64,000 nt of DNA, taken from contig JBKAGP010000001.1 in the NCBI GenBank assembly GCA_046290465.1, positions 640,001 through 704,000 of the forward strand. Reading direction: 5' to 3'. This document shows, piece after piece, positions 43,601 through 49,600 of the stretch. Source of the stretch: Planctomycetota bacterium (lineage in GTDB: Bacteria; Planctomycetota; UBA1135; UBA2386). Position numbers: made by a program. Numbering within the stretch: position 1 is the first letter of the stretch; every line of letters starts with the position of its first letter.

Positions 43601-46600
43601 TCGCCGCGATCCTGCCGCACTGCCGCGACCTGCGGCGACTCGGCAGCGCTGAGCTCGACCTGTGCCTGGTCGCCGCCGGCAGCTACGACGGCTACTGGGA
43701 ACGCTACCTGCAGCCGTACGACGTGGCCGCGGGCTCGGTGGTGGTGCGCGAGGCCGGCGGCCGGATCAGCGACTACCCCGGTGGCGACGACTGGCTGTTC
43801 GGCGACTCGGTGATCGCCAGCAACGGCCGGCTGCACGACGAGCTGCGCGAACGGCTGCTGCGGGCCACGCGGTAGCGCGCGGCCCGCGGCCGACCGATCC
43901 TGGCGGCGGATCGCGCCGGCGCGCGCAGGACTAGAAGTAGAGCGTCGCCTGCGCGTAGCCGACCTGACGCTGGTCGTCGTCGATCGCGTAGCCGGCGCCG
44001 ACGTGCAGGCCGGGCCGCACCATCTTGCCGACCAGCAGGTCGAACTCGAGTTCGCCGAGCTGGGTCGCCGCGCCGTCGCGGTCGAGGGTCAGCACGGTCG
44101 CGGTGCAGTCGAGGTCGAAGCCCGGCGTGAACTGCGCGCTCAGCTGGTTGGTGTCGAGGTCACTGCGCCAGATGCCGCCGTACTGGTGCAGCAGGCCGGC
44201 CGAGTTGAAGTCGGCAGGGTTGATGTGCAGCGCGCCTTCACTGTCGGTGCGGGTGAACGCGACCGCGCGCAGGAAGCCGCAGCAGGGCTCGTCGAAGGTG
44301 TATTCGAGGCGCGCGCGGTAGGCGGTGACGTCGTCGCCCATGTCGACCGAGCGGTGGGCGAACTGCGCCTCCCATTTGAGGTTCTCGGTGAAGTGGCCGA
44401 CGCCTTCGAGGCCGGCCCAGTTGTCGTTGGCGTTGCGCTGCACGTCGCCGTCGTTGGTGCCGGTCATGAAGTAGGCGTTGAGGGTCTCGAGCAGTCCGTC
44501 CTCGCAGGCGTTCCAGCGCGCGGTGCCGCCGGCGTAGCGTTCGCCGCCGCCGACCAGCTGGCTCTGCAGCGGACCGTAGTTGTCGAACGCGAACGCCTCG
44601 ACGTCGATGTCGCCGAAGCTGCGCGACACCCAGATGCCGGTGAACGCACCGGGGTACTGCAGGAAGTCACACGAGCCGAGCACCATGCCGTTGGCGAGGA
44701 AGTAGTTGCTGCGGCCGATGCGGATCCGTTCGTCGAAGCCGAACGCGTCCTCCAGCTGCATGTAGGCCTGCGCGATGCCGTTGAAGTTCTCGCGGGACAG
44801 GATGCCGTTCGGTCCCTGCTGGAACGGCGCGGCGTCCGAGTAGCCCTCGGCACCGGCCCAGACCTCCGAGTAGTTGAACTCGACGTAGGCCTGCGCCCAC
44901 TCGTTGACCTCGTAGTCGAGCTGCAGGCGCGTGCGCGTGCTGTAGTTGTCGTTGGCGTTGTAGGGGGCGTCGTCCGGGGTCTCGGCGAAGCGACCGCGCA
45001 GGCGGGTGTCGCCGGTGAACCGCAGCTTGTCGGAGCGCAACGTCAGGCCGGTGTCGACCCGTTCGACCTCGTCGCCGGGAGGGGCGAAGCTGAAGCAACG
45101 GTTCTGCGGTGAGTAGCACTGCTGCGCCACCGCGACCTGGGACACGCAGAGGACCGCAGCCACCGTGGCTGCGGTCGAGAGGAGCTTGATCATCTGGCTT
45201 GCTCTGCTGTGAGAGAGTGGCGGCCGATGCCGCGGAGCAAGTCGATGACGTGGAAGCTGGAGAGCGCCGTGAACTCTTGGCTCAGAAGTTCAGGGGGAAC
45301 CGACCGGCTCCCCGGCTCTCCACGGAACCTGCTCCGTGGATCAGCCAGGGGTTGCTTCACGTGTATGGAAGCAATGGGGTCTGGATCGGTCGGTCGATCA
45401 CGCGACGAACCATATCGCGCAGCCGCGACGGCGGACGTCGCGAATTGTCGCGAAGTTGTCCGGCAAAGCCTGCGTTGCCGTGCAGCGCTTGGGTTTGCCA
45501 TTGCATCGCCGCGCCGCTGGCAGGTTCAATGCGCGCTGTCCCGGAACGCGCACCCGCCGATGAACCACCCCCGCAGACATTGACACCCCTGAGCCCGGCC
45601 CGGGCGGGGTGCGGTCTGCGCCCCTCATCGGCCTCTCGCTGCCGTTCCGACGCAGGCGTAGCGCATCGCGCTCGCACGGCTTGGGGCGGGCGGGGTCGTG
45701 TGCCTTGGTCAGGCTCTCGGACGGACACGCGCCGTTCCGCTGGATCGATCCACACCGAGCCCCTTGACCCGAACCCTGAGCCCCGAACCCCGAACCCCGG
45801 GGCAAGCCGAAGCCATGAGCAACACATTCTGCGTCACCATCACCGAGTGCAAGACCAACGAGGACAAGGCCACGCTCGGCTTCGTCGTCGCCAACGCCGC
45901 GGTCGGCAGCGAGAAGGAGACGATGGTCTTCCTGAGCGCCGACGGCGTCTGGGCCGCCGTGCAGGGGGAGATGGACAAGGTCGCGGCCGGCGAGCCGTTC
46001 GTGCCGCTGAAGGAGCTGGTCGACAAGTTCGTCGCCAACGGCGGCAAGATCCTGGTCTGTTCGCCGTGCATGAAGAAGCGCGGCATCACCGAGGACCAGC
46101 TGGTGGCGGGTGCGACCCCGGCCGGCGGTGCCGCGCTGGTCGAGTGGCTCGCCAACGGTTCGCCCAGCGTCGGCTACTAGGGAACGGTCCGTGCTGACCC
46201 CCGAACAACTTGCCGGACTCGAGCCCGACCGCGTCTTCGACGGCGGCGCGCTCGACTGCGGATCGGGTCTGGTGCTGCTGATCCGCGAGAACATGCTGCC
46301 GGTGCCCGACGCCGGCGTGCTCGAGATCCGCAGCGTCGAACGCAGCGTGCGCGACGACCTGCCGCCGTGGTGCCGGATGGTCGGCCACGAGTTCCTCGGC
46401 GCGCTGCCGGGGGCGAGCCCCGAGCAGGCGCGCTACTTCGTGCGGCGCGGCGGCGGCGCGGCGATGCAGCAGGAGGCGGCCGCGCTCGAGCAGGACAAGC
46501 AGCGCGCGCGCGACTACCAGTGGCGGCTGCGGGCCCGTTCGTCGGCGCCGCTCGAGACGTCGGTCTACTGCCGCAACTTCCAGTGGCGGATCGGGCAGCC

Positions 46601-49600
46601 GGCCAGCTTCGAGGAGCAGGACGCCAACCCGTCGGCGATCGAGTCGCTGGTCGGAGCGCTGGCGGGGGACCTGGTGACCGGGTTCGCGGTCGCCGCATCC
46701 CGGGCAGGCCTGCAGGTCGACGACATCGAGTTGACCGCGCGGGCCCGCCTGCACGACGTCACCGCACACCTCGGCCTGGTCGAGGGCGACCCTTCGATCG
46801 AGTCGATCGAGGCGCGTCTGTTCGCGTCGACGTTCGACGACGAGGCGCGGGTGCGGGCGGTCTGGGACCAGACCGTGCGCCGGTCGCCGCTCGCTGCGAC
46901 GCTCCGCAAGGCCACCCGGCTCCACATCACCCTGGCAATCGTCTGACCGAGGAGAGGCCGATGTTTTCCGTTACCCAGGTCGGCAGCTGGCCGCGTTCGC
47001 GCAAGCTGCTGCAAGCCCTCCGCGACAAGCAGCAGGGGCGTGCGAGCCGCGCCGAGTTCGAGGCCGTCGCCGACGAGGAGGTGCGTCGCTGCGTCGCGCT
47101 GCAGGTCGAGGCCGGGGTCGACGTGGTCGTCGATGGCGAGCATCGACGCGACAACTTCTACTCGTTCGTCACCGACAAGCTGTCCGGCACCCGGCTGATG
47201 TCGCTGGCCGAGATGCTCGAGTCGATGGAGGACAAGGCGGCGTTCGAGGAGATGCTCGAGACGCTCGACGTGCCGGCGTCGGCGATCCGCAACCCGACCT
47301 GCACCGGCAGGCTCGAACGGCGTGAACCGCTGGCGACCGAGGAGCTGCGGTTCGTGCAGCAGCTGACCGACAAGCCGGTCAAGGTCTCGCTGCCCGGGCC
47401 GTACCTGCTGACCCGTTCGATGTGGGTCGGGGCGTTCTCGCGCGCCGGCTACGACGACAAGACCGAGATGGGCGACGACGTGGTCCGGATCCTGCGCGAG
47501 GAGCTGATCGAACTGCGCGACGCGGGCGTATCGTTCGTGCAGTTCGACGAACCGGTGCTGACCGAGGTCGTGATGAGCGACGACAACGACCGGCGAACAT
47601 TCATGTGAGCCACCCTTGCTACCCGCCGTGATGCGGGTGCCGAACTGGAATACGCCGCGACGCTGCTCAACCGGGTCGTCGACGGCGTCGACGGGGTGCG
47701 TACGGGGGTGCACGTCTGCCGCGGCAACTGGAGCCGCCAGGAGGACGTGCTGCTGACCGGGGACTACGAACGGCTGCTGCCGGCCTTCCGCGCGATGCGC
47801 GTCGACCAGTTCGTGCTCGAGTACGCGACGCCACGCGCCGGCGAGCTGTCGGTCGTCGGCCGTGCCCTCGCCGATCGCGAGCTGGGGCTCGGCTGCGTCA
47901 ACCCGCGCACCGACGAGGCCGAGGATCCGGCGACGATCGTGGCGCGCGCCGAGGAGGCGCTGGCGTACTTCCGCCCGGAGCAGGTGTTCCTCAACCCGGA
48001 CTGCGGCTTCGGCTGCTTCGCCAATCGCTGCGTCAACGTCGAAGACCACGCGGTCCAGAAGCTGCGCAGCATGGTCGCGGCGGCGCGGCAGCTGCGGGAG
48101 CGGCACGGCGGATGAGCGCGTCGGCCGACGACGACGACGAGACGGGCGATCCGCGCACGGTGGCGGCGCTCGCCGACGCGGCGGCGTTGACCGGTGCTCC
48201 GTGCCGGCGCTGCAGCAGGGCGCTGTGCGGCCACGAAGCGGTCTACTGCCTGGTGCTCGGCTACAAGGGGGCACCGCACTGCCTGCCGTGCATCGCCGCG
48301 CACATGGGCGAAGCGCTCGCACCGCTGCGCGAACGTGGCTTCGAATACGTGCGGCACCACGACTGCTTCCTCACCGCGTGGCGGCACGCCGGCGACCTCG
48401 AGGGCCATGCCGGAGTCGATCGGCCGCCGTGCGTGTTCGCGCTCGACGAAGATCCCGCCGCTGCGGCGCAGGCGGGCGCAGGGCGCGATGCGGTGGCCGA
48501 GGCCCAACCGTCCGGGCATGCGAGCTGGGACGCCGGCGGCATGGGCTGTGGCGACCTCGTGCTCGAACTGCGCCAGCGGCTGGCGAAGCTGCCGCCGCGC
48601 GGCCTGCTGCACCTGATCGCCACAGACCCTGGTGCGCCGACCGACCTGCCCGCCTGGTGTTCGATGACCGGGCACACGCTCGAGTCCGCCGAGCACCCGG
48701 ACTATCGCATCCGCCGCCGCCCCTGAACGGCCGGCGGTCGCCTGCACGCGGGCTCGGCTCAGAGCCGCACGTTCTCGCGGCGCATCTCGCCGTCGTCCTG
48801 CTCGACCAGCCGCACGAAGTGCGCGCCGCGCGCGAGCGACGAGCGCTGCAGCAGCGGCCGCAGCACGCCGAGCAGCTGGTCCTCGTCGGGGCCGCAGAAG
48901 AACAGGATGCACTCGCCGCCGCCGAACTCGTCGCCGTCGTACTCGCCGACGCCCGCGTCCAGCACCGCCGCCTCGAGCTGCTCGGCCAGCAGTTCGATCT
49001 GGGCACGCTCTTCGTGCGTGCCCATGTTGCGGTTGCTCAGCCGGAGCACGACGAGCAGGTCCCGCTCGTCGGCGGGATCCTCGTCGTCGAAGCCGAAGTC
49101 GGGCAGGTTCTGGTCGCTCATCGCGAGCAAGTCTAGCCCGACGGGGGCCGGCCGCGCGACTACGGGTCGAGCGTCAGCGTGTCGGCGGTGGCGACGATCG
49201 CGAAGGTCGTCGGGTCCTGGCTGACGGCGCTGGCGTAGGTCGTGATGCCGAGCAGGGCGGTGGCGCTGGGCAGGCCGAAGTAGACCGCGTCCCGGTCGTT
49301 GTCGACCGTGCCGTAGGCGAGCGGCAGCGACGCGACCGCAAGCGTCAGGCCGTCGACCGTGAAGTTGCTCTGCCAGCCGTTGGCCGGATCGATCTGGAAC
49401 GCGCCACACGCCGGCGCGGTGAAGCCGATCAGCAGGATGTTGGAGTCGCCCGGCTCGCCGGCGTTGCGGCACACGTAGCCCGGCAGGTTGGGGTCGTACT
49501 CGACGTAGGTCACGCGCAGGCCACCCGCGAACAGGTTGTTGTTGGCGTTGCCGCCGTTGCGGTCGTCCATCCAGGTGACGACCACGTCTCCGCGGGTGGT

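Follow-up and report, generated by a model that had tools for sequence, protein, structure and literature searches.

A MetE-like gene of the Meth_synt_2 family (Pfam PF01717) lies at the core of a locus in the window, the 64,000-nucleotide stretch of planctomycetal DNA analysed here, and its reading frame is interrupted by a TGA. Is this TGA a stop or a selenocysteine (Sec) codon, and what might the encoded enzyme do next to the cysteine carriers encoded beside it? The gene occupies positions 46961..48115 (384 codons plus stop; Pfam, AF2, and Foldseek; all features described here are on the forward strand), and the TGA at 47606..47608 is codon 216 of a frame that opens with the ATG at 46961 and closes with the stop at 48113-48115. 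When this codon is read through, the product is a 384-aa protein with U216 in the motif RRTFM-U-ATLATRRDAG. Residues 3-376 of this whole protein align to positions 2-323 of the 324 positions of PF01717 (E 1.1e-32), whereas the separate halves cover profile positions 2-189 and 221-323 only. The frame and the Pfam match agree with the genome-wide survey's note, which had merged the gene calls g00527 and g00528 into one 384-aa protein with a single match over this range.

The TGA column is occupied by cysteine in 34 of 35 full-length homologues (57-72% identity), and the remaining one, P0012, has a six-residue gap there. In a survey of the order, 98 of 339 genomes contained a MetE-like match; a single TGA at codon 216 is common to the top 18 (73-100% identity), and the following 12 (54-57% identity) have a cysteine. 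Among the best 80 loci across GTDB species genomes, drawn from the contigs of one genome per species and representing about 12 phyla according to the sequence-record names, codon 216 is TGA in 69 and cysteine in 11. The earlier count of three TGA-containing genomes among 61 was too low. Cys forms are also found in Nitrososphaerota archaea and Chloroflexota.

That the TGA is a true stop, leaving a pseudogene, two separately translated half-genes, or an assembly error, would fit the way in which public gene callers split the gene, both here and in the representative P0130 (220 aa), which stops at query residue 215. This explanation is nevertheless highly improbable, as the 69 TGA loci, at 63-87% protein identity, each contain exactly one TGA and no further stop or frameshift. 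Identity of these Sec forms to the window protein is the same on both sides of the codon (0.718 upstream vs. 0.717 downstream), and protein-level conservation extends over the 29 codons that separate the TGA from the next possible start (GTG at 47696). An assembly error is contradicted by contigs from two other studies (runs X3 and X5), in which the TGA is unchanged; the X3 contig aligns without gaps along the full length of the gene, and its 16 differences, 12 of them in third codon positions, all lie outside the TGA and the hairpin described below. In the one RNA run, 0.05 of the words were present. Furthermore, TGA serves as an ordinary stop in three of the four operon genes, which argues against a genome-wide reassignment.

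Twelve nucleotides past the UGA begins a SECIS-type hairpin of 6 bp (ACCCGC-CGTGAT-GCGGGT, 47621..47638; stem 47621-47626/47633-47638, loop CGUGAU 47627-47632), which, as proposed earlier, is kept in the relatives with a TGA. Across 70 sequences, 96.0% of 420 cells are paired, compared with 29-49% when the partner is slid, and of 176 conserved codons the three with the lowest third-position entropy, T221, A225, and R222, all belong to the stem. The hairpin is confined to TGA forms and absent from all 11 Cys forms, although the encoded residues are nearly the same. Its loop recurs in a PrxQ-type selenoprotein gene of the same genome (C1:2767479-2767847), in line with the likeness to the PrxQ selenoprotein reported before. 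A firm SECIS call is tempered by the shortness of the stem and its low variation, which make covariation thin (two cells with double changes and five G-C to G-U changes), and an Rfam search gave no match. The genome encodes the machinery listed in the earlier note, namely selA (453 bits), selB (354 bits), selD (352 bits, itself containing one TGA), and a tRNA-SeC at 5914319-5914417. With one TGA in 13 of its 23 AhpC-TSA matches, including one with the CGUGAU loop, it is rich in selenoproteins. The selD gene is nearly universal in the order (321 of 339 genomes); against Sec decoding, it was not found in G121 (92% completeness), which has the Sec form.

Conserved TGA in place of Cys, a hairpin specific to Sec forms, equally conserved flanks, the machinery, and the TGA in contigs of other studies together make it very probable, from sequence comparison, that TGA 47606-47608 encodes selenocysteine and that the MetE-like gene is a selenoprotein gene, with decoding predicted to be by SelB via the short hairpin downstream of the UGA. 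A 2026 review lists 119 selenoprotein families (Table 1 of PMC13188914), and none is of a MetE, Meth_synt_2, or UroD type, which, as far as this table goes, bears out the novelty claimed earlier. On this reading, the MetE-like Sec family is widespread and missing from current catalogues; it is encoded beside cysteine sulfur carriers, and features that bear on its possible function are considered below.

Judged from its sequence, the product is a single-barrel ('core') zinc enzyme of the MetE family. The AF2 model has a pLDDT of 87.5, and in Foldseek it comes closest to MetE catalytic barrels and to MesD (3RPD), with TM scores of 0.72-0.82. With canonical MetE (TIGR01371; 1T7L, 1XDJ, 4ZTX), the protein shares the catalytic barrel (Foldseek E 3e-19, TM 0.72-0.75 on query), the HxC...E...C zinc site, and the GSxPR and DEP motifs, but it has half the length, lacks the N-terminal folate-binding barrel, and scores 97.7 bits against a TIGR01371 cut-off of 929.95. 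The zinc ligands H251 and C253 (H251-V-C253, 47711..47719), E287 (47819-47821), and C348 (48002-48004) are invariant in the 35-homologue alignment and in all 93 sequences counted, as the earlier note had also found for its full-length homologues, and can be equated with MetE H641/C643/E665/C726 by HMMER alignment to 4ZTX and by the sections of PMC7857596 considered here. Also invariant are S9, E60, and D196-E197-P198, of which S9, E60, and D196 serve to bind homocysteine through its amino-acid moiety.

What distinguishes the family from canonical MetE is an insertion, seen relative to 4ZTX, of some 13 residues following the DEP strand, whose FM[C/U]A motif sits on a mobile loop. Because the model is poor exactly at this loop (pLDDT <50), the placement of residue 216 relative to the zinc is unreliable. 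Two further cysteines mark the Sec clade, C114 (47300..47302, in 70/70 Sec forms) and C352 (48014-48016, in 69/69). Both are retained by all six nested Cys forms, whereas the other 17 Cys forms mostly have I or V in column 114 (cysteine in 2) and threonine in column 352 (17/17).

The operon order DsrE, TusA/OsmC fusion, MetE-like gene, and Cys-rich TusA described earlier holds, with Pfam matches to DsrE, to the OsmC part of the fusion, and to the TusA domain of the Cys-rich protein, and with a weak match to the TusA part of the fusion. The DsrE-like carrier (45815..46180, 121 aa; PF02635, E 4.9e-15, 56.2 bits vs. cut-off 22.7) has a CxxC at C82/C85, and both cysteines are retained in 60/60 orthologues. 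It is followed by the 251-aa TusA-like/OsmC-like fusion (46191..46946, GTG start), whose OsmC domain spans residues 144-244 (E 4.3e-07) and whose TusA part reaches 20.3 bits against the cut-off of 78 for NCBIfam PRK00299; C23 and C61 are kept in 61/61 orthologues, and the usual two OsmC cysteine columns are A169 and L210 here and cysteine in 49/61 and 43/61 orthologues, respectively. Downstream, the ATG of a 204-aa protein with a Cys-rich N-terminal domain and a TusA domain (48112..48726; TusA residues 140-199, E 2.9e-09, 37.1 bits vs. cut-off 28.6) overlaps the MetE-like stop (ATGA), and nine of its cysteines are retained in 9/9 orthologues. No TGA was found at the carrier cysteines of these 60, 61, and 9 orthologues.

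The cluster is kept in both the Sec and the Cys clades of the order, with the Cys-rich TusA gene changing sides, as it lies upstream of DsrE in other loci. DsrE and the TusA-OsmC gene directly precede the enzyme gene in 58 of the 63 testable Sec loci, i.e. those with at least 1300 nt upstream, and the other five lack adjacent carriers. Of the 13 long relatives that were scanned, seven are fusions of TusA to a MetE-like protein, and FMC is kept in two of three aligned fusions (P0129, P0140). In a Verrucomicrobia/Nitrososphaerota type, however, OsmC, acyl-CoA-dehydrogenase-like, and SBP-like proteins replace DsrE and TusA, so that the carriers are not universal partners.

The explanation that we favour, by a modest measure, is that the Sec enzyme acts in a Cys/Sec sulfur relay onto a homocysteine-like substrate. 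The enzyme shares one operon with three cysteine carriers (DsrE with its CxxC, TusA-OsmC, and Cys-rich TusA), which would move sulfane sulfur from Cys to Cys as a persulfide. A TusA domain docked on the enzyme could then load Sec216 with the sulfur through a Se-S bond, and the loop bearing Sec216 may swing across the barrel mouth and offer the sulfur to the zinc centre, for coupling to a homocysteine-like amino acid or exchange with it; C114 or C352 might resolve the Se-S intermediate. Judging from gene order, fusions, and invariant carrier cysteines, the enzyme and the carriers probably act together by way of residue 216. A net reaction in which a C-S or S-S bond is made on the homocysteine skeleton, in place of a methyl transfer, can be put forward only tentatively. 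Against the favoured explanation, the genome has a full MetH and probable MetX plus PLP enzymes, which leave both methionine and homocysteine synthesis independent of the MetE-like gene. In the earlier reading, the Cys/Sec exchanged sulfur with the TusA/DsrE relay and methionine was not the product; its selenoprotein and novelty parts stand, and the relay is a proposal consistent with the data. The invariance of S9, E60, and D196 would be equally compatible with methionine synthesis or another homocysteine-directed reaction.

The main rival, which we consider rather unlikely, holds that the selenoprotein is a methionine synthase that needs neither B12 nor folate and would form a fifth 'core Mes' family. 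In it, zinc-bound homocysteine would be methylated by a donor yet to be named, Sec/Cys216 would either relay the methyl group or have a redox-sensitive or protective role, and the carriers and OsmC would do no more than maintain a reduced active site or load metal. The protein's top PDB matches are methionine synthases, with MesD the best by sequence (3RPD, E 2.1e-35, TM 0.81-0.82 on target). As far as the sections considered of Price, Deutschbauer & Arkin 2021 (PMC7857596) describe MesD, it likewise is a single (beta-alpha)8 barrel corresponding to the C-terminal catalytic domain of MetE, with the zinc ligands and homocysteine-binding residues kept (as in MesA-D), no folate-binding domain, and a dedicated partner, MesX. 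Query positions 206-235 with FM[C/U]A are unaligned to 3RPD, and MesD is partnered by DUF1852 instead of cysteine carriers. The MetE-like gene is the sole PF01717 gene of this genome, which for the rest relies on the B12-dependent MetH; B12-independent back-ups usually occur in genomes of this kind. E. coli MetE is known to undergo oxidative inactivation at a cysteine near its active site. The DNA of the locus, moreover, occurs in marine, algal, coral, and aquaculture metagenomes from several studies. Yet the MetE-like gene is patchy in distribution (98 genomes in the order, as given above, and 2 of 15 in the genus, the window's own counted). The protein reaches no NCBIfam methionine-synthase cut-off (best 177 bits vs. 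406), an Rfam search found no riboswitch upstream, and neither a corrinoid protein nor, without a dedicated search, DUF1852 is among the gene clusters common to at least 5 of the 80 loci. We know of no methyl-transfer role for TusA or DsrE, and TusA is nonetheless fused to the enzyme in seven of the 13 long relatives.

It is improbable that the module instead handles selenium, with the carriers and residue 216 binding selenide-level selenium, or demethylating selenomethionine, selenohomocysteine, or methylselenol, for recycling or detoxification. Lineages rich in Sec commonly have the Sec form, and selA, selB, and selD lie directly upstream in 2 of the 80 loci (L107, L111), but 78 have no sel genes within 8 kb, such proximity to selenoprotein genes may have other causes, and Cys forms exist in archaea and Chloroflexota; in this order, the presence or absence of selD is uninformative, given its near universality. 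A relative of this idea are the MtaA-like (Mlp) UroD-superfamily clusters, proposed for methyl-selenium demethylation in the parts of PMC10418091 considered here. They share with the MetE-like enzyme membership of a zinc thiol/selenol alkyltransferase superfamily and a genomic tie to Sec use, but are described there with corrinoid proteins and activases and in anaerobes, whereas the present locus lacks a corrinoid protein and it is the enzyme itself that contains Sec.

For the sulfur relay, a precedent for Sec replacing Cys in sulfur-handling proteins is provided by the DsrE-like (UxxC), rhodanese-like (forms 1-5), and YeeE/YedE selenoproteins listed in Table 1 of PMC13188914. These likewise have Sec in place of Cys within a set that moves sulfur from Cys to Cys, are decoded by a bacterial UGA plus hairpin, and have Cys homologues. 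In contrast, the MetE-like protein has a MetE/UroD fold and no UxxC or CxxU motif, and its Sec would be located in the enzyme that ends the proposed relay and not in a carrier.

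The DsrE, TusA-OsmC, MetE-like and Cys-rich TusA genes follow one another in tandem on the + strand (window 45815-48726), and the genes flanking them on either side are on the opposite strand. The operon opens with a DsrE-like gene (45815-46180, +; Pfam PF02635), followed by a TusA-like/OsmC-like fusion gene (46191-46946, +; PF02566 for the OsmC part), the MetE-like gene (46961-48115, +; PF01717, Meth_synt_2) and a gene for a Cys-rich TusA (48112-48726, +; PF01206), whose ATG overlaps the stop codon of the preceding MetE-like gene. The sole interruption of the MetE-like frame is a TGA at 47606-47608, and read-through gives a protein of 384 residues with selenocysteine (Sec) at position 216 (U216). 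As the genome-wide survey's note had proposed, read-through joins two gene halves into one Meth_synt_2 protein: PF01717 matches the whole protein once, over profile positions 2-323 of 324 (E 1.1e-32, 114.1 bits vs a gathering cut-off of 21), and the separate halves over positions 2-189 and 221-323. A promoter and terminator scan returned nothing informative, and no Rfam family was matched between 44800 and 49200 at E <= 1, so that no riboswitch reveals a ligand.

The U216 column contains Cys in 34 of 35 homologues, in 12 of 12 loci of the host's order and in 11 of 11 Cys loci. A six-frame search of the order's 339 genomes recovered the MetE-like gene in 98. Each of the 18 top matches, which include the window's own (73-100% identity), carries exactly one TGA, at codon 216 in the motif RRTFM-U-ATLATRRDAG; in the 12 loci ranking after them (54-57% identity), this column holds Cys. 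Five further matches in the order were flagged with one TGA in the same search (G285, G284, G144, G029, and G080); the G285 locus (L033) was rejected as an additional TGA locus, as its aligned part lacks a TGA and shows Cys in this column. When a single genome from each GTDB species was scanned, at least 575 relatives were identified among 600 stretches, and the best 80 of these comprise 69 with a single TGA at codon 216 (Sec forms) and 11 with Cys (Cys forms). Record titles, whose taxon names are the depositors' labels on metagenome bins, assign Sec forms to Planctomycetota, Krumholzibacteriia, Eisenbacteria, Calditrichia, Acidobacteriota, Armatimonadota, Gemmatimonadota, Verrucomicrobiales, several sulfate-reducer families, Bacteroidales, and Gammaproteobacteria.

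Contigs of two other studies retain both the TGA and a downstream hairpin, one (X3) across the whole gene and the other (X5) across 47500-48115, which rules against an assembly error. The 16 differences in X3 all fall outside the TGA and the hairpin, 12 of them at third codon positions, and mean identity to the window's protein over the 69 Sec forms is 0.718 upstream of the TGA and 0.717 downstream. This equal identity, the Pfam match across both halves and the third-position differences indicate that purifying selection acts, in the same frame, on the coding sequence past the UGA. Of the Sec machinery, the genome contains selA, selB, and selD, each above its NCBIfam cut-off, and one tRNA-SeC(tca) found by aragorn, in agreement with the survey; selD itself has one TGA. 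As far as sequence can show, codon 216 is a UGA decoded as Sec, and the earlier reading of the MetE-like protein as a selenocysteine enzyme is supported by the alignment of the TGA with Cys, the hairpin, the purifying selection past the TGA and the sel machinery.

The hairpin, ACCCGC-CGTGAT-GCGGGT (47621-47638), begins 12 nt past the TGA, and its loop and distance from the UGA presumably fit the published bSECIS rules. Stem positions pair in 96.0% of 420 cells from 70 Sec sequences, compared to 29-49% after a shift of the partner by 1-3 columns. Stem changes are limited to five from G-C to G-U and two double ones, A-U to G-C (L115) and C-G to A-U (L111), and covariation is thin because the stem hardly varies. 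Constraint on synonymous sites is the stronger signal: of the 176 codons whose amino acid is conserved, T221, A225, and R222, all stem codons, have the lowest third-position entropy (median 1.45 bits). The hairpin is absent from the 11 Cys forms, whose residues here are almost identical (TRRD...) and whose codon choice is free. The loop had been described as common to the PrxQ-type selenoprotein gene of the same genome, and the two indeed have an identical CGUGAU loop on different stems. The 14-mer CCGCCGTGATGCGG has a second copy at genome position 2395921; no TGA lies upstream of it, and this copy was put down to chance.

In a quick IQ-TREE search (98 rows, midpoint root), the 70 Sec forms all fall, together with six Verrucomicrobial Cys forms, on one side of a branch with an SH-aLRT of 88, the six Cys forms being nested in a fully supported subclade. 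This quick, midpoint-rooted tree fits a history in which Sec arose once, spread across phyla and reverted to Cys a few times.

In the enzyme, the Zn ligands H251, C253, E287, and C348 are invariant in 36 aligned sequences and also in 93, and S9, E60, and D196-E197-P198 are invariant in the 36-sequence alignment, S9, E60, and D196 also in the wider count. Price et al. (PMC7857596) give S433, E484, and D599 as the homocysteine-binding Ser, Glu, and Asp of E. coli and list the Zn-binding residues likewise, to which H251, C253, E287, and C348 correspond; with the GSxPR, DGE, and DEP motifs aligned to the MetE structure 4ZTX, S9, E60, and D196 appear to correspond to these homocysteine-binding residues. 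A profile search of the PDB with the MetE-like protein retrieved MesD (3RPD), MetE (4ZTX), and 1YPX and identified TRTFMCAALAARKDP as an insertion relative to 4ZTX, and Foldseek ranked MetE catalytic barrels and MesD at the top. The AlphaFold model is confident overall (pLDDT 87.5, pTM 0.90) but drops below a pLDDT of 50 at residues 208-214 and 217-221, so residue 216 sits on a loop whose location is unreadable from it. The FMC motif is kept down to about 40% identity (database proteins P0125 and P0133) and in two of three aligned TusA-fused forms (P0129 and P0140); it is absent from P0126, P0136, P0150, and every aligned relative with <=38% identity.

Two additional cysteines, C114 (window 47300-47302, +) and C352 (48014-48016, +), are invariant in the Sec clade (70/70 and 69/69 Sec forms, respectively) and also in the six Cys forms nested in it. 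The remaining 17 Cys forms mostly have Ile or Val in column 114 (Cys in two), and all 17 have Thr in column 352. C114 and C352 may be the partners of residue 216 that resolve an Se-S bond. Two relatives carry additional segments: P0166 (736 aa) has a weak Hint-domain match within the barrel (E 4.9e-4, below cut-off), possibly an intein, and P0175 (597 aa) has an N-terminal MobA-like NTP-transferase domain.

The survey had reported an association with DsrE, TusA-OsmC, and Cys-rich TusA; DsrE and TusA-OsmC are located directly upstream in 58 of the 63 Sec loci with enough upstream sequence (exceptions: L057, L069, L085, L109, and L114). Within the order, the cluster occurs in the Sec clade and the Cys clade alike, with the Cys-rich TusA on either side, and in 40 loci a small TusA-like ORF (Pfam TusA E 8.8e-5, below cut-off) precedes DsrE. 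Genome G121 (locus L030/L114) contains a Sec form without adjacent carriers, and selD was not found there at 92% completeness. As selD occurs in 321 of the order's 339 genomes, its presence there is uninformative as a test of a selenium link.

The carriers themselves retain their cysteines: C82 and C85 of DsrE (PF02635, 56.2 bits vs 22.7) are found in 60/60 orthologues, C23 and C61 of TusA-OsmC in 61/61, and C146 of the Cys-rich TusA (PF01206, 37.1 bits vs 28.6) in 9/9, and no TGA occurs at the carrier cysteine columns in any partner's orthologues. The N-terminal part of the fusion has no Pfam match and scores 20.3 bits vs 78 with NCBIfam PRK00299; it shares about 34% identity with the TusA domain encoded downstream. 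The OsmC part (PF02566, 30.7 bits vs 27.5) has A169 and L210 in the window's protein where 49 and 43 of the 61 orthologues, respectively, have Cys, and the position of these columns suggests that they form the catalytic Cys pair. With both replaced, the window's OsmC part would lack the two catalytic Cys of OsmC/Ohr thiol peroxidases, and it need not act as a thiol peroxidase.

A second gene context was found in Verrucomicrobia and Nitrososphaerota loci, where OsmC, acyl-CoA-dehydrogenase-like, and SBP-like genes are followed by the enzyme gene. This trio precedes the MetE-like gene in both fully annotated loci, L071 (Verrucomicrobia) and L121 (Nitrososphaerota), and by ORF clustering 11 loci have the acyl-CoA-dehydrogenase-like gene and 10 the SBP-like gene. 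The NCBIfam families nearest to these proteins are Rv1679 (372.8 bits/600) and Rv1680 (209.7/400), respectively, and a literature search on Rv1679/Rv1680/fadE16/moeX retrieved no title dealing with function. Both contexts come together in a seven-gene row (L070:4180-9149, +) of OsmC-like, acyl-CoA-dehydrogenase-like, SBP-like, small ORF, DsrE, TusA-OsmC, and Sec MetE-like genes. Beyond the core module, the widest gene cluster reaches 11 of 80 loci, and sigma-54 activators, kinases, LysR regulators, and methyltransferases are each found near the module in 5-8 of 80. The sel genes adjoin the module in 2/80 loci; in the Bacteroidota loci L107:1556-6446 and L111:240-6353, the DsrE/TusA-OsmC/MetE-like module is immediately preceded by selA, selB, and selD.

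In this Zn enzyme, which retains the homocysteine pocket, Sec or Cys sits on a mobile loop peculiar to the family; cysteine carriers are encoded alongside the enzyme and in some cases joined to it (TusA::MetE-like fusions account for 7 of 13 long relatives scanned). We favour a sulfur-relay reaction on the homocysteine skeleton, in which TusA would exchange sulfur or a disulfide with residue 216, which in turn would carry it to the Zn site. The main rival, a B12-independent methionine synthase, would account for the homocysteine pocket and the Zn ligands equally well. Canonical MetE (TIGR01371) differs in having two barrels, about 750 aa, and an N-terminal folate-binding domain, compared to 384 aa here, and this identity was rejected (TIGR01371 97.7 bits vs 929.95; Meth_synt_1 21.6 bits vs 27). 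No NCBIfam model reached its cut-off on the MetE-like protein, the best being PRK04326 (177 bits vs 406); together with PRK06520 (121/313) and PRK00957 (96.6/258), models not matched to individual MesA-D, this also argues against a named core methionine synthase. The genome encodes MetH, a probable MetX, and PLP enzymes, and the MetE-like gene is its only PF01717 gene; neither the sulfur relay nor the methionine synthase is therefore forced by a missing pathway. Rather unlikely is a more far-reaching variant, in which Sec216 (Cys216 in relatives) would act as a protein-borne super-nucleophile replacing cob(I)alamin and pass carrier-fed sulfur or methyl to a Zn-activated amino acid. If true, homocysteine or methionine would be made from carrier-delivered groups by a cofactor-free route that needs neither PLP nor folate nor B12.

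The survey had stated that a MetE-fold selenoprotein is missing from the 119 catalogued families, and Table 1 of PMC13188914 (2026) contains no such fold. Term searches of the BSepDB paper, its supplement, and the deep-Sep paper, and full-text searches of the open-licence PubMed Central literature, did not find a MetE-type selenoprotein either. If confirmed, the present case adds a widespread selenoprotein family with a MetE/UroD-barrel fold to the 119 catalogued prokaryotic families, and Sec would mark residue 216 as catalytic in a large uncharacterised family (7998 of 8000 scored candidates at E <= 1e-10). Annotations throughout call the family 'methionine synthase', yet it is tied to sulfur carriers of the DsrE and TusA kinds, which makes the second substrate of a folate-less, corrinoid-less MetE-type enzyme directly testable. 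Gene callers now split these Sec genes at the TGA. One database protein (P0012, 377 aa, a JGI gene call) has the Sec-type motif TLATRRDAG, yet a 6-residue gap lies exactly over RTFM-U-A, as if the TGA had been jumped over when the gene was called. Finally, the genome is rich in selenoproteins: 13 of its 23 AhpC-TSA matches have a single in-frame TGA, and their motifs include WUGPC, TPGUT, and FVUSTE, examples being located at contig positions 1208067-1208456 (-), 2767479-2767847 (+), and 5113871-5114230 (+).
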